DNA from: a virus
Taxonomy: Duplodnaviria; Caudoviricetes
Virus record (IMG/VR): IMGVR_UViG_3300034683_000215
Coordinates: 1 to 58,680 of that record
Reading direction: 5' to 3' (one strand)
DNA: 58,680 nt
In this document: in pieces, positions 17,277 to 44,544 of the stretch
Position numbering within the stretch: the first letter of the stretch is position 1
How the letters are laid out: every line of letters begins with the position of its first letter
Notes under the pieces: model-generated
Database searches by the model: none
Seen by the model: only the letters and a program-made list of their open reading frames with translations
What the model was told of the DNA's origin: nothing
Position numbers and translations under genes: made by a program

Positions 17277-17345
17277 TTAGCTAAAAAATTTGCATTTCTC
17301 AAAAAAAGTTCGTATCTTTGTAGTGTCGTAATAATTGTTTTAGCG
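17277..17345 (+). promoter_or_regulatory. Promoter block A, heading cassette array 1
   Basis: TTTG (17289) and TATCTTTG (17313) with 20 bp spacing; inverted copy at 35570-35639. Confidence 0.85.
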
Positions 17346-17350
17346 GTCGA

Positions 17351-17693
17351 GTGTATGGCAAGTGCCTACACAGAACGTAAATAATAAACGCAGTTTAACA
17401 TGAAAGATAATATGAGTGATAATTTTGATATAAACGTAAAAATGCCAGTTTGGAAGAGCATAAAATTGCGTTTATTTAGTGTTGGCAACCAAAGGGAACT
17501 GTTATTAGATTTTCTTTATTGGAGAGAAAAAGAAATACACCCAGCAGACGCTAACAAAATAATAAATAACTATTTAGAGCAGAAAAAATCTAATAATAGT
17601 TGCTAACTTAAATAATAACACTAAAGATTGAAATTATGACAAAAGAAAACAAAAAAGACGAACGGGCATTTGCTATACACGGTGTTATGCCCC
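17351..17693. repeat. attC-like site interrupted by a nested cassette
   Basis: Arms GTGTATGGCAAGTGCC (17351) and GGCATTTGCTATACAC (17665), then GGT-GTTATGC. Confidence 0.7.
17400..17606 (+). CDS. Cassette hypothetical protein (nested cassette)
   Basis: Reads through the arm and GTT (LRLFSVGNQRELL); its stop TAA lies in GCTAAC. Confidence 0.65.
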   Translation: MKDNMSDNFDINVKMPVWKSIKLRLFSVGNQRELLLDFLYWREKEIHPADANKIINNYLEQKKSNNSC

Positions 17694-18040
17694 GTTATTT
17701 TTATCCAAATGGTGATGAGGTAAAAGAAAATGATATTGTGTTTTACTCCGAGAGCAAAAGCGCAGGTGATGACTTCCATTATGCAGACAGTATAAACCTA
17801 ATAGTAAAGCGAGGTAATGAATTAAAAGCAAAAGCTTTTGTGATTACGATGGATAACGCACAAACATTCCAAGATTATGAAGAACCTGAACACAATATGG
17901 TTTCTTTGGAATACGGACAGAATATGTTCAACAAAAATGGTGTGCTACCTGACTTTGAGAAAATAGGTGAATATCCAAAAGATAAAGAAATGTTGACTGC
18001 AAAATATGCCCAAGACCATTTTTGTTTTAATGGGGCATAA
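17636..18040 (+). CDS. Cassette hypothetical protein
   Basis: Starts in the attC-like loop (AFAIHGVMPR spans the arm); stop in GCATAAC. Confidence 0.75.
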   Translation: MTKENKKDERAFAIHGVMPRYFYPNGDEVKENDIVFYSESKSAGDDFHYADSINLIVKRGNELKAKAFVITMDNAQTFQDYEEPEHNMVSLEYGQNMFNKNGVLPDFEKIGEYPKDKEMLTAKYAQDHFCFNGA

Positions 18041-18096
18041 CGGTAAATATAAGAAGCGTGGAGCGTAGCGGAATGATTTTTATATATTGTTAGCTG
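18032..18096. repeat. Short attC-like site
   Basis: GCATAAC...ATATAAGAAGCGT-loop-ATGATTTTTATAT...GTTAGCT. Confidence 0.65.
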
Positions 18097-18352: not shown

Positions 18353-18613
18353 CGGACAGGTATATGAGCCGTGCGGATTAACCTACTAACAATTGAACGA
18401 GGTACACAGTAATAATTTTAAAATATTTTTAGGGATGGAAAAAATAAAAGTAAAAATACCAGAAAAATGTAAAGATTGTGTTTACGTGAATAAAAAAGGA
18501 AATTGTTGGGCTTTGAAAGATAAATGCAACCCAAACAGTATGAATTGTGATTATAGGAAAGATGAAGAGGCGAGCTACAAACGCAAGCATGGCTTATATA
18601 CCATGTTGTAGCA
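18346..18613. repeat. attC-like site with a gene in its loop
   Basis: Arms GGTATATGAGCCGTGC (18359) and GCATGGCTTATATACC (18587). Confidence 0.75.
18435..18611 (+). CDS. Small Cys-rich protein encoded within an attC-like loop
   Basis: MEKIKVKIPEKCKDC...C...C...C; ATG 18435 is in frame with the ORF-track call. Confidence 0.55.
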   Translation: MEKIKVKIPEKCKDCVYVNKKGNCWALKDKCNPNSMNCDYRKDEEASYKRKHGLYTML

Positions 18614-18624
18614 TTGTTTTAATG

Positions 18625-18903
18625 TGCTACAACGTAAAAGTGTATGGTGTCGGTTGCACTTCAAAAACCTACTGACCTACGAACGAGTGATAAACCTCCA
18701 CGTTTACGAGCGTGGCAAAACTTAAATAAAATGAGAAGACATACACAAACGATTGAAGAATGTGAACACTGTGGAAAAGTATTTGAAGCAGGAGAAGATT
18801 ACTGGAAAGATGCACATAATAAATGCTACTGTGTTGATAATGCGTGTGGGTGGGAAGATGACGATACGAGTGACAGCAACTGCACTATACACGGTGTTAG
18901 CAA
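18625..18903. repeat. attC-like site with an extrahelical base
   Basis: GTGTATGGTG(T)CGGTTGC (18640) and GCAACTGCACTATACAC (18876). Confidence 0.75.
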
Positions 18904-18997
18904 TCCGTTAAGTTGCGATGGTTGCAAATACAACGGTACGACTAATGACGACCTTTGCGTAACTTGCGGAGATACATATAAAAACAAAGCAACTTAA
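18731..18997 (+). CDS. Cys-rich (zinc-finger-like) cassette protein
   Basis: CEHC...CYC, then SNCTIHGVSN, then CDGC...CVTC; likely start at 18731. Confidence 0.6.
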   Translation: MRRHTQTIEECEHCGKVFEAGEDYWKDAHNKCYCVDNACGWEDDDTSDSNCTIHGVSNPLSCDGCKYNGTTNDDLCVTCGDTYKNKAT

Positions 18998-19000
18998 TTG

Positions 19001-19104
19001 TTGGTAACGTTTTGCGTATATACGAGGTACGCCAAACGATAAATTTAAAATTATAAACAAATGCTTGTAGGCGTATCTTGTATATACGCTGTTAGCACCA
19101 ATAC
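19001..19104. repeat. attC-like site
   Basis: GCGTATATACGAGGTACGCC (19014) and GGCGTATCTTGTATATACGC (19070), flanked by TAAC and GTTAGC. Confidence 0.8.
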
Positions 19105-19112
19105 GGATTATT

Positions 19113-19355
19113 ATGGAAGATTTTAGATTTACAACAATAGAACCGCTTTTAACAAATGCAGACGCAATGGATTGGTTTTTAAATGAACATTTTTATGAAG
19201 TGTTTGATGAAGATGCAATTTTTCTGAATTACAATGATGGTTATGCAGAAGTGATTGATGGTAAAGGACAAAAATGGGGATTACACGCAAGTGGTGATGG
19301 TGATTTTGTTAGTCACAGAATTAGATTTGAAGCACTAACGAAGTATTGGTGCTAA
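19113..19355 (+). CDS. Cassette hypothetical acidic protein
   Basis: 80 aa; ends in GTATTGGTGCTAA. Confidence 0.7.
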   Translation: MEDFRFTTIEPLLTNADAMDWFLNEHFYEVFDEDAIFLNYNDGYAEVIDGKGQKWGLHASGDGDFVSHRIRFEALTKYWC

Positions 19356-19374: not shown

Positions 19375-19725
19375 ATGAGTTTAACTGTACGATTAATAGA
19401 AAATAATAAATGCCTCTTTGAGGCAAATATTACACATAATTTAATCCCCATGGCTAAAAAAGTAGGTGTTTACGAAGCATGTTGGCGACCCTACAAAATA
19501 TACGATATAGAAGATGATTTAGAAGATTCGGTTGAAGTAAAAGCCAGAGATATTATATATTTTCTGGTAAGAGGTGTGGTAAAATTAAAGCGTTCTCCCG
19601 AAACTTTCAGAAAATACGATTCCCCTAATGGCTGGGGAACATATGATAATTTTCTACCCTGGTTGGAAAGTTATCTAGCTGCTTGTGAAAAACACCCTAA
19701 TGCAATAATCAAAGTTTATAGATAA
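19375..19725 (+). CDS. Phage hypothetical protein
   Basis: ANITHNL...YDSPNGWGTY motifs; coupled to the next gene. Confidence 0.7.
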   Translation: MSLTVRLIENNKCLFEANITHNLIPMAKKVGVYEACWRPYKIYDIEDDLEDSVEVKARDIIYFLVRGVVKLKRSPETFRKYDSPNGWGTYDNFLPWLESYLAACEKHPNAIIKVYR

Positions 19726-20609
19726 TGGATATAAAAAAAACAAGAAAAGGTAACCTAGGGTCCAGCGACGCCAAGATGGTTGCCAAAATAGCAAAACTTG
19801 GAAAAATTTCTAAATCTGATAAATTTAGAATAGCAGAAGTATTGGGCTTGTACGAAACGCCAAATGTTTATACATCTGCTATGAGGGAGGGACACGAGGT
19901 TGAGGAGTTGTTTTATCAGGCCATCTTGCAAAATTTTAGCGGGGCCAAAAGCAATCCTATTTTTGTCAGCGTAATAAAGCCAAAGCATTTCAATATAATC
20001 AACCACATAGATGTAGAAGTTGAGAAAGAAGATAAGGTGCTTTGGTTTGAGCATAAGGCTACAAAGCACCAATCAATTGATGAGGTAGAAGAGGAATATA
20101 AGTGGCAGCTCCAATGGCATATGATGCTCTTGAAAGAACGTGCTTGTGAGAAAGGCTACTCATTAAAATTAGCATGGTTTAACACCACGACGAAAGAGTT
20201 TTCTTATAAGGAAATTCAAGAAGTCCCCGAAATGATAGAGCATCTTAAGAAGGGGATTGAAATAATCGACCAAGCGTGCGAAAAATTTGAATGGGAAAAG
20301 CCTGAGGAATTACCAGTTGAATATTTGGCAGCCCCTGTGCAGAAAAAGGTGGAAGAGGTAGCGTCAGCGTTGAGGGAGATAGATAATCTCAACAAAAAAG
20401 TAGAAGAATTCAAGAAAAAATTATTAGATATTATGTTGTCTAATAATATAAAATCAATCAAAAATGATTATATCTCGATAACACTAGTTCCAGAGAGCGA
20501 AACGGTTACATTTGACGCTAAAAAATTCAAAGCCGAGAATAAAGAATTATCGGAGAAATACAGCAAGGTAGTAAAGAAAAAACCATACATCATGATCAAA
20601 ACGAAATGA
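19725..20609 (+). CDS. YqaJ / lambda-exonuclease-like recombination nuclease
   Basis: LGSSD, AMREGHEVE, HID...FEHK and YKWQLQW motifs; adjacent to recT. Confidence 0.8.
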   Translation: MDIKKTRKGNLGSSDAKMVAKIAKLGKISKSDKFRIAEVLGLYETPNVYTSAMREGHEVEELFYQAILQNFSGAKSNPIFVSVIKPKHFNIINHIDVEVEKEDKVLWFEHKATKHQSIDEVEEEYKWQLQWHMMLLKERACEKGYSLKLAWFNTTTKEFSYKEIQEVPEMIEHLKKGIEIIDQACEKFEWEKPEELPVEYLAAPVQKKVEEVASALREIDNLNKKVEEFKKKLLDIMLSNNIKSIKNDYISITLVPESETVTFDAKKFKAENKELSEKYSKVVKKKPYIMIKTK

Positions 20610-21358
20610 ACGAGATAAAGAAATTCTTTAAGCAGGACGAGGTGGAAGAAAAGTTTCGCCTTCTGTTAGGCGAAAGGGCACCTCAATTTTTGACCTCGGT
20701 TATGCAAGCCGTGTCGGAAAACTATGATTTGCAATATGTGGACCCTAAGTCCATTTATGGTGCAGCAGTAACAGCAGCCCTTATTAACCTGCCAATCAAC
20801 AAAAATTTGGGATTTGCCCATATAGTTCCATATAAAGGTGTGGCACAATTCCAAATGGGTTGGAAGGGTTTTGTTCAGTTGGCTCATAGGACTAATCAAT
20901 TTGTAAGGATAAACCCTACGGATGTGATGGAAGGAGAGATAATCGAGCGAGATCGGCTAACGGGTGATATGAAATTTAAGTGGCTGCCCGATTCGGAAAG
21001 AAAAGGGCTTGAACCGATAGGGTATGTTTCATATTTTCGACTGGTCAATGGGTTTGAAAGCACCTTCTATATGACTTCAGAAGAGCTCGATGCTCATGCT
21101 AAAAAATATTCAGAGGCTTATAGAAATAACAATGGACCTTGGGTGAATGATAAACCCGCCATGTGCAGGAAAACCGTTATTAAATTAAACCTAAGCAAGA
21201 ACGCACCTCTATCTTTGGATATGCAAAGAGCAATAATGTTCGACCAAGGAGTAACGTTCGACGGAGAAACGGTGGAATACGTGGATAATCCTGAAATAGA
21301 GATTATCGACGAGAAACAAAAAGCCATCGCTGAGAAACTGAATGGCATATTAGATTAA
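20606..21358 (+). CDS. recT: RecT-family single-strand annealing protein
   Basis: LGFAHIVPY, AQFQMGWKGFVQLA, PW....AMCRKTV. Confidence 0.9.
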   Translation: MNEIKKFFKQDEVEEKFRLLLGERAPQFLTSVMQAVSENYDLQYVDPKSIYGAAVTAALINLPINKNLGFAHIVPYKGVAQFQMGWKGFVQLAHRTNQFVRINPTDVMEGEIIERDRLTGDMKFKWLPDSERKGLEPIGYVSYFRLVNGFESTFYMTSEELDAHAKKYSEAYRNNNGPWVNDKPAMCRKTVIKLNLSKNAPLSLDMQRAIMFDQGVTFDGETVEYVDNPEIEIIDEKQKAIAEKLNGILD

Positions 21359-22940: not shown

Positions 22941-23390
22941 ATGATAAGAGAAATTGCTTTAACGGATGATAATCCGCTGGAATATCTATCTATAAATATA
23001 TTTCAGCTGCCTAAGTCCGATTATAAGGTGGTCGGATATTTAGGGGAAGTTTTAAACTTCGTAAATAGAAAGTCAGCAGCAAAAAGTTATTTCGATTTGC
23101 TTTTTGCTTCGGAGGCCGAAAAAAGATTTATATTCGATTATTTGGAAAGGTTACGCTTAATCGAAAGGATAGGGGAGGAATATAGCGTAACAAAAGAAGG
23201 GAATGAGTTAATAAATGCGCTTAACGAGTTATACATTCGGCATGTAGGTATTTGCTCCTCCTGCAATGAAAAACTTGGGCCAATTAGGTTTAACGAGTAC
23301 CTATCAACGCATGAAGCCGTGTATGAGTTTATGTGCGACGAATGCGCCGATATGTATGAGGAATTACTGTATGGCTGGACGAGCGTTTAA
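22941..23390 (+). CDS. wHTH plus zinc-finger hypothetical protein
   Basis: YSVTKEG wing, CSSC...CDEC. Confidence 0.5.
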   Translation: MIREIALTDDNPLEYLSINIFQLPKSDYKVVGYLGEVLNFVNRKSAAKSYFDLLFASEAEKRFIFDYLERLRLIERIGEEYSVTKEGNELINALNELYIRHVGICSSCNEKLGPIRFNEYLSTHEAVYEFMCDECADMYEELLYGWTSV

Positions 23391-23718
23391 CTTTACCTAC
23401 TTGAGAAGCGTATTAAGGAGAGCCTGGATGCGCTCACCTGAGCGAGGAATTGCCTTACAAAGGGCATTCGTAGAAAAACGCCCAAATGAAAAAGGTCGCT
23501 TGGTAAAGATGTACATGTGCGCATATTGCGGTAAAGTATTACCAGCCAAAGATGTGCAGATAGATCATATTAAAAATGTGGGGACGCTAAAAGATTTTGA
23601 TGACCTGCCCGATTTTGTCAGAAATTTATTCTGCGATGCTTCGGAATTGCAGGTGTTATGCAAGGAGTGCCATAAAGAAAAGACAAAAAAAGAGAGATAT
23701 GGTAAACGTAGCTCTTGA
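23374..23718 (+). CDS. HNH endonuclease
   Basis: CAYC...QIDHI...LQVLCKECHKEKT; likely start at MAGRAF. Confidence 0.85.
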   Translation, partial: AGRAFNFTYLRSVLRRAWMRSPERGIALQRAFVEKRPNEKGRLVKMYMCAYCGKVLPAKDVQIDHIKNVGTLKDFDDLPDFVRNLFCDASELQVLCKECHKEKTKKERYGKRSS

Positions 23719-25544: not shown

Positions 25545-26735
25545 TTAGATGAATTTTTTAACATAGTTAATACAGTCAGCATTTTTCTTTGAAATAACCC
25601 AACCGGGTTTTTTACCTCCCTCAAAATTCAAAAATGGATTGAACTTTGCTTTAAATTCCTTGAGCTTTCCCTTGTGTTTTTTAGTTTCGCCAAAAATCGC
25701 GAAACTTTTTTCTGAGTAATCAATTAAAACAAGTTCCTTTTTAGTAGGCAAATCAACCTCTTTAGTTGATTTTTTTGGTTGTTTTGTTTCTTGTTTCTTT
25801 GTTTCTTGTTGTTTTGTTTCCTGCTGTTTTTTTGTTTCCATATTTGTAAAGTTTAAAGGTTCAAACAAAAAAGGTTTTTCATATTCATCAAAATAAATAG
25901 TATCGACTTTACACTTTTTAAGCAAATCGAGCGAAATTCCAATACGCTCTTCAGGCCCGATGATAGGCATTATTACACCTAGTAACTCTTCGGTTATATT
26001 TACCTCCTCTACCTTAATCGGTAACGTTTCTGTATGATCTGAATTTTGCAGGTAGCACTCTTTTTTATAAATATCGTAGTAAACGACATTGAACTTTCCT
26101 ATAGATTTTAGTTCGTTTGCCCTTTTTATAATTTGCTTGATAGGCAAGGTTATTTTTTGTTTATAATATTTCGATTTTGACAAATAGGAGTCATAAACTG
26201 GCATTTTTACGCCTTGTTCATAGCACGAAAAAACAATTTCATTTAACTTAAGAAAAATACGTTTTTCGGTTTTAAAAATTTCCACCTCCTTATCAATAGG
26301 AAGCTTTAAAAAGCTTTTCAGTTCGTCTATATGAACCGAAAATTCATCGGCGAACTGACAACCCTCCCGAACCACTAAAACAGATGAATTTGTAATTAAT
26401 ATCGTACCTTCTTTGAATAAGATTGAATAATATAAAGTTTTTAGGCTTTTTGTGTTGCTAATACTAGAATAATACTCAATAAACTTTAAATCATTAGTTG
26501 TTAAGACGCCTAATTTTTTGGCGTCTGAGGGCAATAGGTTTAATTCCGGGTATTCATCAACCGAAAAGTTTAATTTTACTCCGGCAGAGAAAACGCCCTC
26601 CTCCGTGGAGGACGTTTTTTGGTAAACTTGATAGCCTAATGTATCAACGTAAACGTAACCGTTTTTTATACAATAGGTATTATCAAGCAAAGGTAAATTC
26701 TTGTTTCTCTTGCAAAGTTTTTTGATTGTTTCCAT
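25545..26735 (-). CDS. Clamp-like N-terminal region, QETKK linker and small C-terminal domain
   Basis: DEYPEL, ITNSSVL and Q.VKMPVY resemble beta-clamp modules; QETKQ/QETKK repeats; IDYSEKSFAIFGETK...GWV domain. Confidence 0.5.
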   Translation of the reverse strand: METIKKLCKRNKNLPLLDNTYCIKNGYVYVDTLGYQVYQKTSSTEEGVFSAGVKLNFSVDEYPELNLLPSDAKKLGVLTTNDLKFIEYYSSISNTKSLKTLYYSILFKEGTILITNSSVLVVREGCQFADEFSVHIDELKSFLKLPIDKEVEIFKTEKRIFLKLNEIVFSCYEQGVKMPVYDSYLSKSKYYKQKITLPIKQIIKRANELKSIGKFNVVYYDIYKKECYLQNSDHTETLPIKVEEVNITEELLGVIMPIIGPEERIGISLDLLKKCKVDTIYFDEYEKPFLFEPLNFTNMETKKQQETKQQETKKQETKQPKKSTKEVDLPTKKELVLIDYSEKSFAIFGETKKHKGKLKEFKAKFNPFLNFEGGKKPGWVISKKNADCINYVKKFI

Positions 26736-27983: not shown

Positions 27984-28091
27984 AGCAATTATTTTAATTG
28001 TTAATATGATAGTTCAAAGTTACAACGATAATAATCGAAATGCAAGTTTTTTTCAAAAAATTTTTGGCGAAAACTTAAATTTAGAAACTTT

Positions 28092-29249: not shown

Positions 29250-29510
29250 TTTGCTAACAACATTATCAACCGCCATGGCGCGGTTAATGGCTTTATATCA
29301 TACTTTTGCGCCGCCCTTTTTCGTCCTGGACTTTTTGAGGTGGGTGGGGTTTTGGGATTTTGACAGCCCCCGAGCAAACACCCCCCACTAAAAACACGGT
29401 AATACCCCCGATTGTTTATGTTTACAAATTTGTCGATGTAATTGTGATAAAATGTTTTATTTGATTTTAAGTTTAAAGTGTTTTGTTGTTATTTGGATGT
29501 TAGCCACAAT

Positions 29511-30389
29511 TTAAAAAAGATGCGGCATTACTTCTTTGATACGGTTAATCGTAAAAAATGAAAGTCGTTTAAAATCAATTGTTGGATTTTTGAACTCTTT
29601 TACAAAGTTCCAGCTTTCTTCTTTTACAAGGCAGTAAAAAACAGTATTCAAAAGTCGTGGGATCTGTTTACTACTCCAACCGTTTTCAGTCTCAATTTTT
29701 GCCAATTCCTTTTCAATTAAAGCCTTTGTTACAAACTTATTTACTATTTCTTCTTCAATAATTTTGTTTTCTTTAATCTCAGTTACATCGCATTTGGCGT
29801 GTTTTGCCTTAAATTCGTTTTTAACAATCTTTGCCCAAACTACACGCCCAAATCTGTTTTTGTAATTGTAGTTTTTAATTACAATACCTTCGCCAGTTCC
29901 TTGTCCATCTTCAATTAAGTACACATTCTTTTCTAATTGGTTTACTAATATTTCGTATGTAGGGTTCTCAATCTTGCAAATTGGCGGGATGTATTCAATA
30001 CCAAATTCATCGAGCATTACTTTATATGCCTCGTAAGGCAAATAGTTTTCGCCATCCATTACGTCAAACACATAAAAGTTATTCCAAGCCGTTTTTTGGT
30101 AAGTTTTAAGCGTATGCGGCACAAGCCATTCGCCAAATAATCGCAAGTTTGGGTATTTAGCAAAAAATAAGTAAAACATTTCTTGCTGTAAAGCCCAATT
30201 ATAAAAACCTGCATTATCGTTCTCAACTTCTAATTGCCTGTTTCGGCTACCAGCCCGTAAGCCATTTTCAAACCATAATTGAGAATTTGTTCCGTCAATT
30301 TTTGGGAATATGTAGCACATACCCATTTCAATTCCGTTTGTTTCAGTAGTTCCTAATCGTTCTACGTGTTGATACTTTGTAAATTCCAT
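29511..30389 (-). CDS. RNA ligase (Rnl2-like), cassette-borne
   Basis: Nucleotidyltransferase motifs KIDGTN, FGEW, FYVFDV, EGIVIK and AKIV. Confidence 0.85.
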   Translation of the reverse strand: MEFTKYQHVERLGTTETNGIEMGMCYIFPKIDGTNSQLWFENGLRAGSRNRQLEVENDNAGFYNWALQQEMFYLFFAKYPNLRLFGEWLVPHTLKTYQKTAWNNFYVFDVMDGENYLPYEAYKVMLDEFGIEYIPPICKIENPTYEILVNQLEKNVYLIEDGQGTGEGIVIKNYNYKNRFGRVVWAKIVKNEFKAKHAKCDVTEIKENKIIEEEIVNKFVTKALIEKELAKIETENGWSSKQIPRLLNTVFYCLVKEESWNFVKEFKNPTIDFKRLSFFTINRIKEVMPHLF

Positions 30390-30423
30390 ATTTATCTGAT
30401 TTTGTGATTAATAAAATAAAAAC

Positions 30424-30557
30424 TGTGGCTAACAATGTGTATAATTAATTGGGGTTGTAGTGCAGTTTTCAGCGTCCAACCTCGCCCCAGCGTTCGTGTA
30501 TTTTGATTGGTTCGTGCCACGTAATCCCCAACTAATCATACACGTAACGTTAGCAAT
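30424..30557. repeat. attC-like site
   Basis: GTGTATAATTAATTGGGG (30437) and CCCCAACTAATCATACAC (30526). Confidence 0.8.
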
Positions 30558-30852
30558 CAGTGTCTTGCTCACAATTTTTATAAGCTGGATTACATTCTTC
30601 ACATTTATACTCCCATTTAGCATACTGCCACTTACAATTTCCGCAATCCACCACCGCTTCGCTATTGCTAACATGCTGTATATTGCAGTTGCTATCCGTG
30701 TCGGAAGTCAACCCGGCCCACAATTCTAACATACGAACATCATATTTTAGTCGTTCAACTTCATCTCTGTTTCCAGAAGCCCTGTTTTCCATCAGCGTAA
30801 CTGTATCACGTAAATCTTTTATTACATTAATAATACTTCTCATATCTGCCAT
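30550..30852 (-). CDS. Cassette protein: coiled coil, arm-encoded linker, Cys-rich tail
   Basis: DSNCNIQHVSNS spans the arm; CGNC...CEEC tail. Confidence 0.65.
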   Translation of the reverse strand: MADMRSIINVIKDLRDTVTLMENRASGNRDEVERLKYDVRMLELWAGLTSDTDSNCNIQHVSNSEAVVDCGNCKWQYAKWEYKCEECNPAYKNCEQDTDC

Positions 30853-30940
30853 CGCACGTCTAATTTTTAAAGTTTATACTGTTATTTAAATTTGTGCTGT
30901 TTCTGTCGGCAACCGACAACATACAGCTACGACGTAGTTG
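30664..30940. repeat. attC-like site with a gene start in its loop
   Basis: GCTGTATATTGCAGTTGC (30675) and GCAACCGACAACATACAGC (30909). Confidence 0.75.
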
Positions 30941-30943
30941 TAA

Positions 30944-31207
30944 TTAAAAACTTTTCAGCATATTTTCAGCATCATCTCTGGTATTCCAACTAACTTCGCC
31001 ATTATCAAACTCTTCCACTAACTTAGAAAGAAAAGTTTTTAAATGTTCGCTTCGCCAACTAACAGCAGGTATATTCAAATTTTTTACTTGCTGTTGTGCA
31101 AAATAATCAGCTAACTCTTTATACTGAGATTGCTTTAATTTTATTCTTGTTATTGACATTTCGCCAAACTCAAAAATATGGTTTTCCCCTTCTTTGTAAT
31201 GTTTCAT
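30944..31207 (-). CDS. Cassette hypothetical protein
   Basis: KNLNIPAVSWRSE spans arm and core. Confidence 0.65.
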   Translation of the reverse strand: MKHYKEGENHIFEFGEMSITRIKLKQSQYKELADYFAQQQVKNLNIPAVSWRSEHLKTFLSKLVEEFDNGEVSWNTRDDAENMLKSF

Positions 31208-31264
31208 ATCGTTTGTGTTTTAAATTCGTAAAAAATCAAAATATACCTGCGCTACGTTGGGGGC
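31056..31264. repeat. attC-like site with a gene start in its loop
   Basis: GCAGGTATATT (31065) and AATATACCTGC (31240), then GTTGGGGGC. Confidence 0.7.
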
Positions 31265-31266
31265 AA

Positions 31267-31497
31267 TTAAAGCACTTCGCAATCACGCAAATAAAATGAT
31301 TTATGGTTATTTACACCTTCCAAATCAACAATGCAACCATTATCTTCCCATCTTGCGTAATATGCAGCTAATTGTCCATAATCAAACATTAATTTAGCAA
31401 TAATGCCATTTGGTAATTTTAATTTACTTGTTTCGTAATAAATTTTATTTCCTCTTACATCTTTTTCGCCAGTGTACAATCCTTTTACATTTTCCAT
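31267..31497 (-). CDS. Cassette protein, YopX C-terminal-like fragment
   Basis: YTGEKDVRGNKIY resembles the YopX QYTGLKDKNG.EIYEGD motif. Confidence 0.5.
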   Translation of the reverse strand: MENVKGLYTGEKDVRGNKIYYETSKLKLPNGIIAKLMFDYGQLAAYYARWEDNGCIVDLEGVNNHKSFYLRDCEVL

Positions 31498-31500
31498 TTT

Positions 31501-31686
31501 TCAATCAATTAAAAGTGCATAACAATGTATAAAATTAATGCGCTTGGTTATGTTAGTGCTTAATTCAAAGTTTACTGTTTCCTTTTGTACCTCAACATCA
31601 TTGATGTATGATTTACCATTTCTCTCTGAATAATAACCATACACCCACTTACCTTGTTTGTCTAGTCCTTTGTAACTTGTTAGCAT
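31501..31686 (-). CDS. YopX N-terminal-like fragment
   Basis: YKGLDKQGKWVYGYY...V..ETV. Confidence 0.45.
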   Translation of the reverse strand: MLTSYKGLDKQGKWVYGYYSERNGKSYINDVEVQKETVNFELSTNITKRINFIHCYALLID

Positions 31687-31906
31687 TTTTTCTAGATTTA
31701 AGGTTAATAATTGGTTTGTCTATTCCTTTGGCTCTTAATGCTGCTTGTATTTCCAGAGCCTCTTTAATGCTATCTGTATATAGTCCAGCAATATAAAATC
31801 TGTATTTAGAAGGTGGTAAATACTTTAAACTAATAAGATACACCACAAAGCAAATAAATAGGACTAATGGCAGCATATACATAATTAATATTAATATATC
31901 TAACAT
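31649..31906 (-). CDS. Hypothetical membrane protein
   Basis: N-terminal TM segment. Confidence 0.45.
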   Translation of the reverse strand: MLDILILIMYMLPLVLFICFVVYLISLKYLPPSKYRFYIAGLYTDSIKEALEIQAALRAKGIDKPIINLKSRKNANKLQRTRQTR

Positions 31907-32060
31907 ACTTTAGCCCTCCCTAAATTTGTTTTCTAATGTTAAATAACCATTCCTGACATTCATAGGTTGTATCTCCTACTTGATAGCTGAATTTTCCCAT
32001 TTTATTAATGTTTTTTGTTATTAAATCGCACTAAATATATCTGCATCCCGTTGGGGGCAA

Positions 32061-32243
32061 TTAATAGTACTCGATAACCACCACATTTATGGTGATATAA
32101 TCTTCTGAAGAGTTTGCATCCCATAATTCAGTTTTTCTAACTGTATAGGCTTTCATGTAGTCAAACTCTCCGCGCTGCTGAATAAAAACCTCTTTTTCTG
32201 GGTCTTGTTTTTTCAGCTCTTCGATTAGTTCTTTTACTTTCAT
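32061..32243 (-). CDS. Cassette hypothetical protein (MKVKELIEEL family)
   Basis: N-terminus duplicated at 33934-34008. Confidence 0.65.
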   Translation of the reverse strand: MKVKELIEELKKQDPEKEVFIQQRGEFDYMKAYTVRKTELWDANSSEDYITINVVVIEYY

Positions 32244-32352
32244 ATGGTTATAAATTGTTGTTATCAACAAGCGGAAGAACATTCGAGCATTTAATCAAGG
32301 TTAGTACGCAACGCACCATAATAAATAATTTTGCCCACCCGCTTTTGGTTTT

Positions 32353-33147
32353 TCAAACCAATTCGGGTATTTGCTCTCGTAAATATTTGTAAATTTTCCA
32401 CGTTTGTATTTTTGGTGCACTAATGCAAGGGTATAAATTTTTCCAATCTGTGTTTTTCATTAATTGCATCACTTTGGCTTTATACGTTTGGTTGTTCACC
32501 TTAATGTAAATTTCCTGTGCAAATTGTCCTACAAAGTCAACTTCTTTTCCAACATTGCCCCAAGCACACATTCCAAAATCGTAATCGGTAGGTATTGGGT
32601 AAGTTCCGTTTCTTCTATACTCCATTACTGTAACATCATTAAGCTTATAGTCAATCGGCTTGGTGTTAAGTCCTTTTTCAGGTCGCTTATAAATATTAAA
32701 GCTGCATTGTAATTTCACACCACAATATTCCACTATCGGCAGTAGTTCGCTGTAAATCATATCAAACTCATACATTTGTTGGTTGTTGTTGTACTGGCTT
32801 GCAGGTAGTATAAATGCAATGTAGTCGCCTTGCTTTACAGCTTTCTTATAAAACTTAACACTTAGTGTGTTTCGTGTTCCAAATGGTGGGTTTCCAATAA
32901 CACATCTACCTTTAAAGTATGGTAAATCTAATTCAAGGTAGTTTGCTTGCTCAATGTTTTCTGCTTCGGGTTCAATATCAAATGCAAGGTAGTTATCATC
33001 CAAGTAAGGTAAAAACGCACCCGCTCCTGCACTTGGTTCAAGCCATTCAGTTATATTTTCTTCTCCAATTACTTCTTTTGTTTTCTTCACACAATATTCT
33101 GCTAAATCGGCAGGTGTGTAGTATTTATCTAAATTTATTTTTGCCAT
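32353..33147 (-). CDS. DNA adenine methyltransferase (gamma class), cassette-borne
   Basis: KYYTP, LEPSAGAGAF, IGNPPFG. Confidence 0.85.
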   Translation of the reverse strand: MAKINLDKYYTPADLAEYCVKKTKEVIGEENITEWLEPSAGAGAFLPYLDDNYLAFDIEPEAENIEQANYLELDLPYFKGRCVIGNPPFGTRNTLSVKFYKKAVKQGDYIAFILPASQYNNNQQMYEFDMIYSELLPIVEYCGVKLQCSFNIYKRPEKGLNTKPIDYKLNDVTVMEYRRNGTYPIPTDYDFGMCAWGNVGKEVDFVGQFAQEIYIKVNNQTYKAKVMQLMKNTDWKNLYPCISAPKIQTWKIYKYLREQIPELV

Positions 33148-33205
33148 CCCTAAAAATTATTTATTATTACTTCTGTTCATTTAATCAAGTTCCGTGCTGC
33201 CGCCA

Positions 33206-33306
33206 GTTGGTAACAAGTGGTATAAAACAAAACCTCTGGTTGCTTAGTCTCATTGTTCGGGCTATGGTGGTGTCGGTTTCGATTTCATACCACAAGCCCG
33301 TTATGG
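33206..33306. repeat. attC-like site
   Basis: GTGGTATAAAACAAAACC (33217) and GGTTTCGATTTCATACCAC (33275), then GTTATGG. Confidence 0.7.
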
Positions 33307-33390
33307 TTATTATTAATTTCAGTTGTCAAGTAATCCTTTACAACTGCTTTTTTATCCGCTTCAATTCTTATACGTGGAACGTTGTGTGTA

Positions 33391-33544
33391 ATAAAAATGC
33401 TCGTCTCTCCGAGCCGTCACACCTAAGCTAACTGGTACTACATACCATAGGCGGCATTGGTTATCTCCGTTCATCCTACAGTATCACCGTTATGCGTGCC
33501 TCCCTGTGTCCCACACGCTCATCTTCTGCCACCGCATTTTTACA
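33391..33544 (-). ncRNA. Candidate structured RNA in an ORF-less cassette
   Basis: GC-rich, closed by AAAAATGC/GCATTTTT; 3' end GUGACG-GCUCG-GAGAGA-CGAGC hairpin; TATATTTG promoter at 33620-33627 on -. Confidence 0.45.
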
Positions 33545-33772
33545 TACACACAACAATGTATATAATTAATAGCGGTGTTAGTGCAATATTTTAAAGAACT
33601 ACTTTTTGTAAACTTTATGCAAATATATGAAATTCATAGCATTAAATCTGCTACTGTTCGCAAGTAGTAATAACTCGTTTCTGTGTCACCAGTTAGGTGC
33701 ATTGCTACCCACCGCTTTTTACCTTTATGTTCTTTGAGTCTTACCCACTTATACATGTATTAGCAATCATTG

Positions 33773-33988
33773 CTATAAATCAATATCAATTTTAGGCTTG
33801 TATTTACTAATATGAAAAGTTACAGGAATTGTTTTACCATCAAGGTCAAGCAACGAATTGCTAACATGCTGTAATACGGCATTATTTTTTACTACCTTTT
33901 CCTGTTCACATTCATTCCATACTTTTATTAAAGCCTCTTTTTCTGGGTCTTGTTTTTTCAGCTCTTCGATTAGTTCTTTTACTTTCAT
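33773..33988 (-). CDS. Chimeric cassette protein
   Basis: MKVKELIEELKKQDPEKE joined to NAVLQHVSNS. Confidence 0.55.
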   Translation of the reverse strand: MKVKELIEELKKQDPEKEALIKVWNECEQEKVVKNNAVLQHVSNSLLDLDGKTIPVTFHISKYKPKIDIDL

Positions 33989-34021
33989 ATGGTTAAAAAT
34001 TGTTGTTAGGCACAATAAAAA

Positions 34022-34231
34022 TTACTTACGTTCTCGTTCCAATATTTCATTCTGTTTTTCTAGCAAAGTATTTCTATACTTCAACTCTATCTGTATATTT
34101 ATTAGCAAAATGCTAATCAATATTCCAAAAACAAGCATTGTCATAAAAATAAAAAATGTTCCCATAAATCGTAATTTTAAAAGCGTACTAACCTTATACT
34201 TTGCCGTTAGCGGTAATTTTCCATAAACCAC
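34022..34231 (-). CDS. Small membrane protein (start uncertain)
   Basis: TM segment plus a short coiled coil. Confidence 0.45.
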   Translation of the reverse strand: MVYGKLPLTAKYKVSTLLKLRFMGTFFIFMTMLVFGILISILLINIQIELKYRNTLLEKQNEILERERK

Positions 34232-34473
34232 TTAACACCTGCTATAAATGCTTCCTGTTTGTCGTACCAATTTACGACAACTTCCATAGTATCTTCGTTT
34301 GTGTTATCATCATTAGATTTATCGCTATAATTTATAGCAGCAGTTTCAATTTCATTTTCGGAAGGAAAACTACCGCTAACAGCAAATAAATCCAATAACT
34401 CACTTTCTGCATCATTGAAAGATAAATCACCAGATTTAATTCTATTTAGTATTTGTTTAATTTTTTCTTTCAT
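34207..34473 (-). CDS. Cassette hypothetical protein
   Basis: LDLFAVSGS spans the arm; AFIAGVKW motif. Confidence 0.7.
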   Translation of the reverse strand: MKEKIKQILNRIKSGDLSFNDAESELLDLFAVSGSFPSENEIETAAINYSDKSNDDNTNEDTMEVVVNWYDKQEAFIAGVKWFMENYR

Positions 34474-34506
34474 ATCGTTGCTGTATTTATTTGCGTTCCG
34501 TTAAGT
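34371..34506. repeat. attC-like site at the array boundary
   Basis: GCAAATAAAT (34382) and ATTTATTTGC (34485), then GTTCC-GTTAAG. Confidence 0.65.
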
Positions 34507-34820
34507 ATTTCGTATGCTATAGCCGAAATTTTTGTAATGGTTAAGAAGTTTTTAGCCATGATGTTATAAGTTTGGTTTGCTATGTTGACATAGTCTATTT
34601 TAGCGTCTGGGTTAATGATGCCGAAAAAATCTAGGATGGCGTTAACTTCATTAAGGGATAGTAGGAATTTTTTTGCTTCATCGGTTGATTTAAACCTGTC
34701 TTTCTTTATGTGGACATAAAGATATAAAATTGCCTCATGTGCTTTAAACTCTTGGAAAGAGTTTATTCTATTTAATCTGATATAATCGGTCAGTAAGTTT
34801 GTAATATCTTGTTTAATCAT
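34470..34820 (-). CDS. Hypothetical protein whose C-terminus runs into the array
   Basis: Ends ...ILNGTQINTATI, encoded by the attC-like arm. Confidence 0.6.
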   Translation of the reverse strand: MIKQDITNLLTDYIRLNRINSFQEFKAHEAILYLYVHIKKDRFKSTDEAKKFLLSLNEVNAILDFFGIINPDAKIDYVNIANQTYNIMAKNFLTITKISAIAYEILNGTQINTATI

Positions 34821-35569: not shown

Positions 35570-35639
35570 CGCTAAAACAATTATTACGACACTACAAAGA
35601 TACGAACTTTTTTTGAGAAATGCAAATTTTTTTAGCTAA
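35570..35639 (-). promoter_or_regulatory. Promoter block B (inverted copy of block A)
   Basis: The reverse complement matches 17277-17345 except for one extra A. Confidence 0.85.
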
Positions 35640-35643
35640 AAAT

Positions 35644-36072
35644 TTATATTCCAGTAGATCCAAAGCCTCCTCTGGAATCATTATTCAAGTTATCAACCAT
35701 TTCAAACTTAACATTCGGCTGATTTTTGATAATTCTGAATTGCAAGATGCGCTCGTATTTTTTTATGAATGTTTCCCCTGTTAAACAAAAAAGGTATCCA
35801 CCCCAAATATCATCATCGCCGCGGTAGGAGTTATCAATTATCCCTATTGAGTTGGCAAGAATCAACCCGTGCCTCTTGAACAAGCTGCTTCGGGGAGCGA
35901 TTATGGCTTCGTACCCAGCTGGCAGTTCCATTGAAACACCTAAAGATATTTGTAAAATGTCTCCCTGTCTGATATGCCAACCATCACCTGTGAACCTGTC
36001 TGGTAGGTTAACAATATCCACCAAGTATAAATCAACCCAATCGCCGTTATCTAGTTTAACTAGTCTCGGCAT
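35644..36072 (-). CDS. dut: dUTPase
   Basis: PRSS, GIIDNSYRG, ERILQ and RGGFGSTG motifs. Confidence 0.93.
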   Translation of the reverse strand: MPRLVKLDNGDWVDLYLVDIVNLPDRFTGDGWHIRQGDILQISLGVSMELPAGYEAIIAPRSSLFKRHGLILANSIGIIDNSYRGDDDIWGGYLFCLTGETFIKKYERILQFRIIKNQPNVKFEMVDNLNNDSRGGFGSTGI

Positions 36073-38216: not shown

Positions 38217-38435
38217 CTACTCATTATCCTCGATTAGCTTGGTTAACGAAATGTATCCAAAACTATTCTCATATAGGCAGTTTAAATAATTGCTAACCGC
38301 CTCATCGTTTCCTTGCATCAAGAAATAATTAGCTGTTCTCGGGTCCAGCGGGAATATTTCTCCCGTCTCCGTTTCGTAGTAATGATACTTACCAGTATCT
38401 ATATACCGTCCGTCTTTAAATTTTACTATTTCCAT
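38217..38435 (-). CDS. Hypothetical protein
   Basis: ORF in the operon. Confidence 0.55.
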   Translation of the reverse strand: MEIVKFKDGRYIDTGKYHYYETETGEIFPLDPRTANYFLMQGNDEAVSNYLNCLYENSFGYISLTKLIEDNE

Positions 38436-43791: not shown

Positions 43792-43868
43792 AGATTTTAT
43801 TTTTTTTAAAATAACATTGCAAAGATACGAATAATTTTTAACAATTCCAAATTTTTTAACAGAAAAGA

Positions 43869-44282
43869 TTAAGAAATATTTATCTCCACTATATTCCTTT
43901 TATATTTATTTACCTTATTTTTATACTTAATTGTGGCAGTTTTTTTATGCCCTTTTGGGCCGCCATTCCATATCCTTACATCGTTGCCATAAATATCCAA
44001 ATAACGCTTAAAAACCGTTATAGCTTTTAATGGATTATACATTTCTTCAAGTTTATAATTAGTGCCATAATAATAGTTTATATCATCTATAACGCACTGC
44101 CTAACTTGAAGAAGTCCAACGGCGTTTTCCGCAGGGTTGTATGCTTTCATGTCCCCCGCTGATTCTACCATTACGACTCCCCACAATATGGATAAAAATT
44201 CATCATGGTTTATCTCATATGAAAATCCAGGAGCGTAACATTTAATAGGAATGAACAATGCAAAAAAGAGTAACTTTCTCAT
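43869..44282 (-). CDS. Lytic transglycosylase / lysozyme-like exported protein
   Basis: Signal-like N-terminus, VES.G...AYN, AVGLLQV, WNGGP. Confidence 0.75.
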   Translation of the reverse strand: MRKLLFFALFIPIKCYAPGFSYEINHDEFLSILWGVVMVESAGDMKAYNPAENAVGLLQVRQCVIDDINYYYGTNYKLEEMYNPLKAITVFKRYLDIYGNDVRIWNGGPKGHKKTATIKYKNKVNKYKRNIVEINIS

Positions 44283-44544
44283 AATTAATTTTTTTTGTTA
44301 TCGGCAAAAATAGCATTTTAAATTTTAACGGCACAAATGTACGAAAAAATTTTGAGAAATCCAATTTTTTTTAAGCAAAAAAATACCATGCCTCTAATTT
44401 TGCATTTTAAGGTATCAAATTTCAACGTTCTTCGTTCGGGAGTACAAATATACCACTTAGGGGTAGAACGCTTAAATATGAGCCTAAAAATGCCCTTAAA
44501 TGGCTTTCTATTAATCGAGATTAAATCGAGTTGAGTTATGATTA

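Follow-up and report, generated by a model that had tools for sequence, protein, structure and literature searches.

Two-stem folding sites mark the borders between re-paired halves of small proteins in a Bacteroidota-type phage

The window analyzed here is the whole IMG/VR virus record IMGVR_UViG_3300034683_000215 (58,680 nt, with 117-nt direct terminal repeats and a G+C content of 35-40%), which belongs to a virulent-looking, Bacteroidota-type phage. Its small open reading frames (ORFs) 18731-18997 and 30550-30852 share a short island in which a GTT triplet is read as valine, and an earlier reading of the DNA from its letters alone (the sequence-only reading) had proposed that recombination at this GTT, or within the arm beside it, occasionally fuses unrelated N- and C-terminal modules in frame. 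We found that the front and back halves of such proteins have been re-paired many times in nature and that the arm/GTT junction forms the central part of a composite, two-stem folding site that punctuates blocks of accessory genes. Both stems exist, covary, and are selected on one strand. While the structure and the shuffling are well founded, their cause is a matter of graded likelihood: the best explanation, which we consider somewhat probable, is that a folding site resembling the attC sites of integrons shuffles halves and genes by exchange at conserved cores on a folded single strand.

Protein halves are paired many-to-many at one valine codon

The two copies of the island, at 18876-18904 on the plus strand and 30692-30664 on the minus strand, have the form GCAACTGCA(C/A)TATACA....GTTAGCAAT, are identical at 25 of 29 nucleotides (hand count), and encode DSNC(T/N)I(H/Q)(G/H)VSN in both ORFs. 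As the sequence-only reading had described, a tail with the pattern CxxC...CxxC...YKN is shared as well: 16 of 42 residues are identical between the 88-aa product of ORF 18731-18997 and the 100-aa product of ORF 30550-30852 (BLASTP, E value 2e-5). Only the tails align; BLASTP of the two unrelated N-halves gave no alignment. Their description as a zinc finger and a coiled coil is plausible from the letters, and Pfam had nothing above its cut-off. The third ORF singled out earlier, 33773-33988 (LQHVSNS), has an exact 17-mer in common with ORF 30550-30852 and nothing else, and its sequence on either side is different, as had been stated; at up to 2 mismatches, these two sites are the only ones for this 17-mer in the record.

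Both parts of the island are overrepresented in the record. The pattern TATAC-N2-7-GTTAG was observed 9 times (0.86 expected) and GTTAGCAAT 5 times (0.81 expected); each count was reached in 0 of 200 dinucleotide shuffles, and the reversed-pattern controls of both motifs showed no enrichment. All seven shared residues of the island use identical codons, compared with about half of those in the remaining tail (hand count), an initial sign that selection acts on the nucleic acid.

Seven linker-bearing ORFs were identified (18731-18997, 30550-30852, 33773-33988, 38217-38435, 30944-31207, 34207-34473, and 17636-18040), and the earlier statement that GTT is an in-frame Val codon holds for all seven. 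As a rule it is weaker than it appears. On the one hand, GTTAG is barred from frame +1 because it would read TAG. On the other hand, sense-strand GTTAGC is read genome-wide as Val-Ser 11 times and as Leu-Ala 12 times; thus, the Val frame is no general rule. Furthermore, ORF 38217-38435 (GTTAGCAAT, read AVSN) lacks flanking helices, is probably a chance copy, and was excluded from the tabulation below. ORF 18435-18611 was considered as a free-standing Cys module and not accepted (E values of 0.016 to one paralog and 9.7 to the other).

A profile built from the two tails and scored against 1.84 billion representative proteins gave 14 matches at an E value of 0.001 or less. Twelve of the 14 are 63-104 aa long, carry the module at the C terminus, and fall into two subtypes, and every front is different; P0015 and P0017, which are long and repetitive, were dropped. 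At the DNA level, subtype A was represented by one IMG/VR contig and by 10 metagenome loci confirmed among 83 pattern matches; L009 (the same protein as L008) and the truncated L016 were dropped, and L015 (no start) and L017 (cut at the contig end) were kept for helices only. A word-index search with the type B tail returned only the query, and scans of viral contigs for P0002 and for type B found none. Searches with ORFs 34207-34473 and 33773-33988 gave 19 and 17 proteins, respectively, many of which cover half of the query. In nine loci with the same back half, the DNA is identical exactly from T-GTTAGCAAT, and upstream of it the TATAC core alone is in common.

We split 59 junction-bearing proteins at the Val (6 from the window, 7 from the loci, and 46 from databases; P0004, P0015, P0017, P0019, L009, and L015-L017 were left out). 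The halves form 33 N-clusters and 10 C-clusters, which are joined in 44 combinations, the many-to-many pairing that the sequence-only reading expected of recombining modules. Of the N-clusters, six are joined to at least two C-clusters, and one of these six has six C partners; the front MKEKIKQI..LLDLFA of ORF 34207-34473 is paired with six back families, and the front ..KVWNECEQEKVVKNNAVL with three, including the window's own and the Cys module in L011. Counted from the other side, the Cys module has 18 front families, the SLLDLDGKTIPV module 14, and the SFPSENEIETAAL module 5, and these partner counts are inflated by sampling through homology to three back halves, which must be held against our interpretation. 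This sampling affects neither the many-to-many pattern nor where the border lies.

The border itself is sharp. Among pairs with the same back and different fronts (363 pairs), identity is at most 20% at positions -15 to -1, apart from 41% at -3, and rises from 9% at -1 to 85% at the Val. Pairs with the same front and different backs (95 pairs) are 99% identical at the Val, 81% at +1, 66% at +2, and 58% at +3, and at most 15% from +6, with single exceptions of 36% (+13) and 21% (+15). Where neither half is shared (1,221 pairs), the Val is still conserved at 90% and the Ser at 77%. Thus, the expected breakpoint at the Val codon was found, and the proposal that N- and C-modules are re-joined in frame into combinatorial small proteins is supported by both the tabulation and the Val-anchored profile; a second class of borders, after AAC at the stop codon, had not been foreseen and is described below. 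Back halves also occur in another setting: L019 (1060-1446), from another phage, encodes a 128-aa protein in which a SFPSENEIETAAL-type domain follows a front rich in Cys, without the Val junction; therefore, the back halves are domains that exist outside the junction system too.

The junction is part of a two-stem folding site

The two paralogs have three sites in common, not one. Site L is an upstream non-coding arm (TGTATGNTGTCGGTTGC), M is the island, and R is TTG(C/G)TAACGTT at or just after the stop codon. The 17-mer of L has two matches only in the record at up to 3 mismatches, one per paralog. L and the 5' part of M are complementary, as are R and GTTAGCAAT; the L:M and M:R helices are present in both the minimum free energy (MFE) and the centroid folds of both paralogs (z scores of -3.45 and -2.50).

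On the sense strand, the unit reads ...GCTAAC, 2-7 nt, GTATGG-arm...loop...arm-CTATAC, 3-5 nt, GTTAGC...body...GCTAAC. Stem 1, with the base GTAT(G/A)G...CTATAC, is either empty (19014-19089; 30543-30437) or holds an ATG and the front half of a protein. Stem 2, with the base GTT...AAC, is a bare hairpin (18605-18633) or encloses a back half or a whole gene. Inner stems are 12-30 bp long, the spacers of 2-7 nt and 3-5 nt are unpaired, and back halves 100-175 nt long are bounded by perfect inverted repeats of 9 bp. The stop codon TAA is often inside the GCTAAC arm, which is why unrelated back halves end in ..DC-stop or ..ENYR-stop. This plan repeats in three stretches, 17.35-19.36 kb (plus strand), 31.25-29.50 kb (minus strand), and 34.5-34.2 kb (minus strand).

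Ungapped stems growing from the motif bases exceed expectation: there are 13 stems 1 of at least 9 bp (4.08 expected; reached in 0 of 100 shuffles) and 5 stems 2 of at least 9 bp (0.90 expected; reached in 1 of 100 shuffles). A loose scan for GTT...AAC stems (at least 9 bp, span up to 1,500) gave 164 against 126 expected, mostly chance, and was used solely to pick the 14-bp stem at 17684-18041. The units and their parts are as follows.

17351-18041, plus strand: unit with stem 1 17351-17366 : 17665-17680 and stem 2 17684-17697 : 18028-18041
18359-18633, plus strand: stem 1 unit, 18359-18374 : 18587-18602 around ORF 18435-18611, which ends at the junction
18605-18633, plus strand: empty stem 2 hairpin following the unit of ORF 18435-18611
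18640-18657, plus strand: L, the non-coding 5' arm of stem 1 (gene 18731-18997), some 75-90 nt upstream of the ATG
18731-18997, plus strand: ORF of 88 aa, with a front half with Cys pairs, the Val-Ser-Asn junction, and a Cys-rich back half of type A
18876-18904, plus strand: M junction, comprising the 3' arm of stem 1 (GCAACTGCACTATACAC), a 3-nt spacer, and GTTAGCAAT
18998-19008, plus strand: R, 3' arm of stem 2 directly after the stop codon, TTGTTGGTAAC, with one G-G mismatch to GTTAGCAA
19014-19104, plus strand: compact empty stem 1 with 20-bp arms and a 36-nt loop, then GTTAGCACCAATAC
30549-30927, minus strand: paralog unit with L at 30927-30909 and ORF 30852-30550 (100 aa, back half of type B)
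30692-30664 and 30557-30549, minus strand: M and R of the paralog unit, R holding the stop codon
30543-30526 : 30454-30437, minus strand: empty stem 1 of the ligase unit, within 29498-30543
30434-30420 : 29512-29498, minus strand: stem 2 of the ligase unit, TGTTAGCCACAGTTT, 15 nt, enclosing the RNA ligase gene 29511-30389
30935-31250, minus strand: unit of ORF 30944-31207 (PAVSW), with stem 1 31250-31228 : 31087-65, junction GTTAGT, and a weak stem 2
33760-33988, minus strand: ORF 33988-33773 (71 aa), with the junction at 33873-33857 and R at 33767-33760
34202-34494, minus strand: unit of ORF 34207-34473 (LLDLFAVSG), with stem 1 34494-82 : 34394-82
34384-64 : 34222-02, minus strand: stem 2 of the same unit, 21 nt, with the stop codon TAA inside the 3' arm
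32182-32270, minus strand: 89-nt repeat, 93% identical to 33927-34015

In the first paralog, the arm at 18640-18657 pairs with 18876-18892 in both the MFE and centroid folds (ungapped core 18640-18649 : 18883-18892), and GTTAGCAAT within 18876-18904, read Val-Ser-Asn, is the 5' arm of stem 2; its R has the fully complementary form TTGTTGCTAAC in relatives. The GTTAGCACCAATAC that follows the next, empty stem 1 pairs with 19343-19355 around ORF 19113-19355, and the stop codon TAA lies inside the 3' arm. ORF 17636-18040 reads AIHGVM across its junction, and the sequence of its 14-bp stem 2 differs from the others, which is covariation. Near-identical arms of the unit at 30935-31250 occur in L018. 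The junction 33873-33857 is the 17-mer in common with 30680-30664; no stem 1 was found for this ORF, and its middle segment recurs in L011, fused to a back half of type A, and in database proteins with a third back half. The base of stem 1, GTATGG, itself contains an ATG: the one at 18644 is in frame with ORF 18731-18997 and would give a candidate product of 117 aa, and the one in the 30550-30852 paralog opens just a 20-codon frame.

The RNA ligase (PF09414, Rnl2-like, 292 aa) is the single cargo inside one stem 2, in a unit of 935 nt. We considered whether the M strand might splint transcript ends for sealing by this ligase. This link was rejected, because the ligase is mere enclosed cargo that a relative skips and because a related record that is 100% complete (G002) and two fragments have no PF09414 match.

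Stems covary and are selected on one strand

Pairing is specific to each locus. In 12 loci, the own upstream region and own arm pair with a mean energy of -25.4 kcal/mol, compared with -15.1 (standard deviation, 4.5) for foreign pairs; the own pairing ranks first in 7 of the 12 and second in 3, and the two exceptions, from the same front family, have no stem 1. Each locus has an upstream arm of its own that is complementary to the last codons of its own front, for example AGCAGGTATGGTTAGTTGCC to GGCAATTAACTATACCTGCT, GTGTATGTGTAGTTTTTGCCC to GGGCAAAAATTACCTATACAC, and CGTATAACAACAGTGC to GCATTGTTGTTATACG. Between the two paralogs, the sole variable base of L (G/T) faces the sole variable base of M (C/A), a compensatory change. 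Stem 2 covaries as well, with the arm pairs GTTAGCAAT/ATTGCTAAC, GTTAGCGGTAGTTTTCC/GGAAAATTACCGCTAAC, GTTATGCCCCGTTA/TAATGGGGCATAAC, GTTAGCACCAATAC/GTATTGGTGCTAA, and GTTATAAAA/TTTTATAAC; the last pair comes from L018, a more distant 58-kb phage, where the junction is GTTATAAAA (Val-Ile-Lys) and TTTTATAAC follows the stop codon.

Strand-symmetric scoring of 19 helices, which are partly dependent (the paralogs are related, as are L012 and L013), gave 278 Watson-Crick pairs, 25 sense-strand G·T, no A·C, and 4 other mismatches. The excess of G·T over A·C indicates that the fold is selected on the sense strand, and in 10 of 10 helix-bearing loci the sense fold is more stable than the antisense one. 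At least 7 of the 16 stem 1 helices have their two G·T pairs in the same positions, one directly behind GTAT and the other five bases on (hand reading). Genes are co-oriented with the GC skew, from which the sense strand is probably also the lagging-strand template. Being both the messenger and the probable lagging template, this strand has an asymmetry that cannot separate RNA from folded single-stranded DNA.

Natural borders lie before GTT and after AAC

We compared 29400-34600 with metagenome contigs from four other studies (one run is labelled RNA-Seq and is probably DNA). Foreign contigs lose similarity at 30551, 30552, and 30554, in the R core of the second paralog, and also at 29496, 30434, and 34383; further ends, at 33858 and 33927, are in the region of ORF 33773-33988. 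By hand count, 5 of the 24 loose ends listed (77 further ones are unlisted) are within 4 nt of one of 12 core triplets, with about 0.6 expected. One foreign contig matches exactly 29499-30551, that is, the empty hairpin plus the ligase unit, and another joins 29518 to 30413, a relative in which the ligase is lacking or replaced. A further contig covers 34200-34383 only and continues with a different ...CATATACAC arm, and the loops 31100-31211 and 34398-34480 are replaced in foreign sequence with the arms retained. The nine loci with the same back half diverge into nine different sequences immediately after AAC. Taken together, the contig ends and this divergence define two classes of borders, before GTT and after AAC, and show that what is exchanged is one stem-loop module at a time. 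One module border lies away from any GTT core: the edge of the 89-nt repeat, whose second copy begins at 33927, the position of one of the foreign contig ends. The repeat gives ORFs 32061-32243 and 33773-33988 the same upstream region and first 19 codons, followed by different continuations.

Comparison with integron attC sites

The available text of Qi et al. 2023 (PMC9892861) describes 17 attC clusters without an integrase (CALINs) in phages, one of them in Polaribacter phage P12002L, and reports that 5 of 6 phage attC sites were recombined by IntI1 in an assay. In the methyltransferase region of P12002L, we found intergenic sites of the same layout as ours: ...CTAAC, 6 nt, GTATATAC...GTATATAC, ATT, GTTAC.... 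The likeness extends to several features. Like attC sites, the sites in the window have outer AAC/GTT inverted boxes (all stems 2 and outer boxes start with GTT and finish with AAC), unpaired spacers, an inner stem, and a variable loop. As in CALINs, stop codons are at the AAC box, folding is strand-specific, and the arrays consist of small accessory genes, including DNA methyltransferases. With this layout, the arrays resemble attC clusters without an integrase. Unlike attC sites, the loops hold start codons and the front halves of proteins, and the GTT core is read as Val within a gene. In the text of PMC9892861 available to us, "in-frame" and "start codon" do not occur, and "fusion" occurs once, of plasmids; our literature search found descriptions of phage attC clusters and, among the titles listed, none of hairpin-encoded protein heads or their re-pairing.

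Several observations weigh against an attC-like site. Borders are at both AAC and GTT, and a canonical integron would not give the AAC border. In a canonical cassette the site moves with the ORF that precedes it; here, the nine loci with the same back diverge right after AAC, so the hairpin does not, and one foreign contig has the empty hairpin attached to the ligase gene that follows it. Folding is better on the sense, or top, strand, whereas integrons use the bottom strand, and stem 2 reaches 14-21 bp, beyond what an R box needs. The attC core is given as 5'-GTTRRRY-3' (PMC9892861), and GTTAGCA, GTTAGCG, GTTAGCC, GTTATGC, and GTTATAA fit it at no more than 4-5 of 7 positions; a site of P12002L reads GTTAGGC. 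More equivocal is the comparison with the extrahelical bases that mark the recombined strand of an attC site: in place of regular bulges, at least 7 of 16 stem 1 helices carry two G·T pairs (seen as C·A from the opposite strand) in constant positions, and the two paralogs have a single bulged base. Sites of the attC type are about 57-141 nt long. The compact sites of the window are about 107 nt (18998-19104) and about 138 nt (30557-30420), and the loaded ones exceed 300 nt, well above this range. All sites point in the direction of transcription, which is what an RNA element would do. Finally, searches for tyrosine (PF00589) and serine (PF00239) recombinases had no match in the 58,680 nt, so that no integrase was found, with controls positive in 14 of 14 and 12 of 14 genomes, and the Rfam attC models had no match in the record.

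If the site is attC-like all the same, exchange would take place on a folded single strand at the conserved cores, driven either by an integron-type integrase from the host or by homology-dependent recombination through the RecE and RecT of the phage. A crossover at G|TT would swap front halves in frame, and one at AA|C would move a whole gene together with the hairpin in which it starts. If either strand can fold, giving these two crossovers, the attC-like layout and the observations against it could be reconciled. A bolder version, which we offer tentatively and regard as rather doubtful, is that virulent phages run a DNA-level "exon shuffling" of small proteins, with exchange at AA|C when one strand folds and at G|TT when the other does. 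It would mean that these phages keep combinatorial libraries of accessory proteins, probably for host takeover or anti-defence, with an integrase borrowed from their hosts.

Alternative explanations

The main rival is that the stems are mRNA structures, serving as punctuation for processing or stability with the module in a panhandle, and that modules are exchanged through RecE/RecT homology at the short stem bases. We judge this possible but unlikely. Much of the strand evidence agrees with it: the helices have 25 G·U and no A·C, the sense fold is the more stable in every helix-bearing locus (10/10), and in each of the two gene blocks the sites are oriented as the genes are transcribed. An RNA role would also suit the stop codons inside the arms and the long stem 2 helices that enclose whole ORFs, including the 935-nt ligase unit, and exchange by homology would suit the RecE-like and RecT genes at 19725-21358, the lack of an integrase in the record, and the borders at both ends of every stem-loop unit. 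However, the strand asymmetry would fit folded single-stranded DNA equally well, given the GC skew, and the two G·T at fixed places of the inner stem resemble a mark for recognition by a protein (hand reading). The same layout is present in P12002L, which is reported to have an attC cluster, and phage attC sites were recombined in the assay (PMC9892861, available text). In addition, the sites match no Rfam family, and cleavage at the stems would split the fused ORFs.

Exchange of this homology-driven kind has been proposed for PeSLs, the promoter/stem-loop cassettes found in T4-type phages (Arbiol 2010, PMC2839356; Comeau 2014, PMC4122927). In the plastic regions of those genomes, small accessory ORFs are bordered by conserved short motifs of regulatory appearance, and where related phages differ by an indel or a swap, these motifs coincide with its ends, as the ends at 30551, 30552, 30554, 29496, 30434, and 34383 and the loop replacements do here. 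The PeSLs described there are intergenic units in direct orientation, in which a host sigma-70-type promoter is coupled to a stem-loop terminator, and they exchange whole ORFs, whereas the motifs in the window are paired inverted arms that enclose modules, some of them intragenic, with swaps in frame. By reading, the TAnnTTTG box of host-type promoters was not seen inside the stem-loop units; it was seen elsewhere in the record.

The modules might instead be cargo cassettes with short terminal inverted repeats (GTT...AAC), mobilized by a transposase or nuclease in trans in the manner of elements resembling miniature inverted-repeat transposable elements or of mobile insertion cassettes. We regard this as improbable. 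The perfect 9-bp inverted repeats around the 100-175-nt back halves, the unrelated cargo between identical ends (10 back-half families), and the HNH endonuclease gene at 23266-23718 would be expected of such cassettes, but the arms covary instead of staying constant, reading of the flanks revealed no target-site duplication, and a search of the record for transposases, including Y1 transposases, found none.

A linker-only reading, in which ..I-P-x-V-S-N.. is a conserved peptide of a two-domain family and the resemblance of the DNA merely follows from it or reflects paralogs that recently underwent gene conversion, is very improbable and already contradicted: it would account for the Val (90%) and Ser (77%) conserved with neither half shared and for all accepted junction copies being in frame, but arms L and R are non-coding and yet change in step with the coding arm they pair with, units that are empty and encode nothing carry the motif too, the seven island residues keep identical codons (about half do in the remaining tail), and L014 keeps TATAC in another reading register (LLYDVSN), so that TATAC is not a peptide motif.

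Other systems that combine short motifs with variable segments differ in ways that can be stated briefly. The glycine-rich motifs of the gp38 adhesins of the T4 superfamily are, in the text consulted (PMC3157838), short intragenic motifs bounding variable segments that are apparently shuffled between phages; they belong to one protein family and are coding only, with no non-coding partner arms or stem. The start-associated sequences of cluster K mycobacteriophages combine a motif with an imperfect inverted repeat upstream of many genes and are oriented with transcription; the accessible text (PMC3203893) does not report them within genes or as borders of swapped protein parts. The reverse transcriptase that is the hallmark of diversity-generating retroelements (PF00078) has no match in the record. 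Shufflons and invertible tail-fibre segments (Rci, Gin/Cin) join a constant part of a protein in frame to alternatives at short sites, need a dedicated adjacent recombinase, and swap C termini by inversion within one genome. Unlike these, the phage record has no such recombinase, and its modules all face one way.

Implications

Domain shuffling in bacteria and phages is usually viewed as the result of rare illegitimate recombination. Here, nucleic-acid structure marks the borders of protein halves, and there are dozens of natural in-frame re-pairings at one codon. If the site is of the integron type, recombination sites can sit inside genes and encode protein, and phage attC clusters would be engines of protein innovation as well as carriers of genes. 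If the stems are RNA structures, they would be a kind of mRNA punctuation that is undescribed and yet widespread among phages of the Bacteroidota type. In both cases, the rule parses many orphan phage genes into modules and provides a search key, namely GTT...AAC stems beside GTATGG...CTATAC stems, as well as a natural scaffold for modular protein fusion.

Gene content and other features of the record

Genes identified in the record encode a terminase, a portal protein, RecE-like and RecT proteins, an HNH endonuclease, a primase-polymerase, the RNA ligase, several DNA methyltransferases, and NinG. Two of these loci are relevant to the explanations above.

19725-21358: RecE-like and RecT genes
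23266-23718: HNH endonuclease gene

One database homologue is labelled by its source as Anaerophaga sp. A terminase search for relatives gave one 99% fragment, which ends short of the shuffled regions. For the small proteins, Pfam and PHROGs gave nothing above threshold, and an AlphaFold2 model of the 88-aa protein (7 sequences) had a mean predicted local distance difference test score of 37 and was unusable. Over the whole record, no tRNA gene reached the threshold, and Rfam had no match at gathering scores and two irrelevant sub-threshold matches in E-value mode.

Several repeats lie apart from the folding sites. The segment 44841-44934, with AT-rich palindromic and tandem repeats at the minimum of the cumulative GC skew and between divergent gene blocks, is likely a replication origin. 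A family of 58-nt repeats with CAAAnnTA on the minus strand (28009-28066, 35589-35646, 43814-43871, and 44328-44385) contains, in the sense of the genes, TAnnTTTG, which we take to be the -7 promoter box of Bacteroidota; the repeats are probably host-polymerase promoters of early blocks, and TATCTTTG near 17313 resembles the same box. A 15-nt tandem repeat (25772-25831) is inside ORF 25545-26735, whose 396-aa product has no Pfam or PHROG match. Finally, about 480 nt at 33150-33640 on the minus strand have no ORF, a higher G+C content, and no Rfam match. This stretch is preceded by a junction-like TATATACATT-GTTGTGTGTA, which pairs with TACACACAAC 174 nt on (33554-33381), and it could be a non-coding RNA or a decayed cassette.

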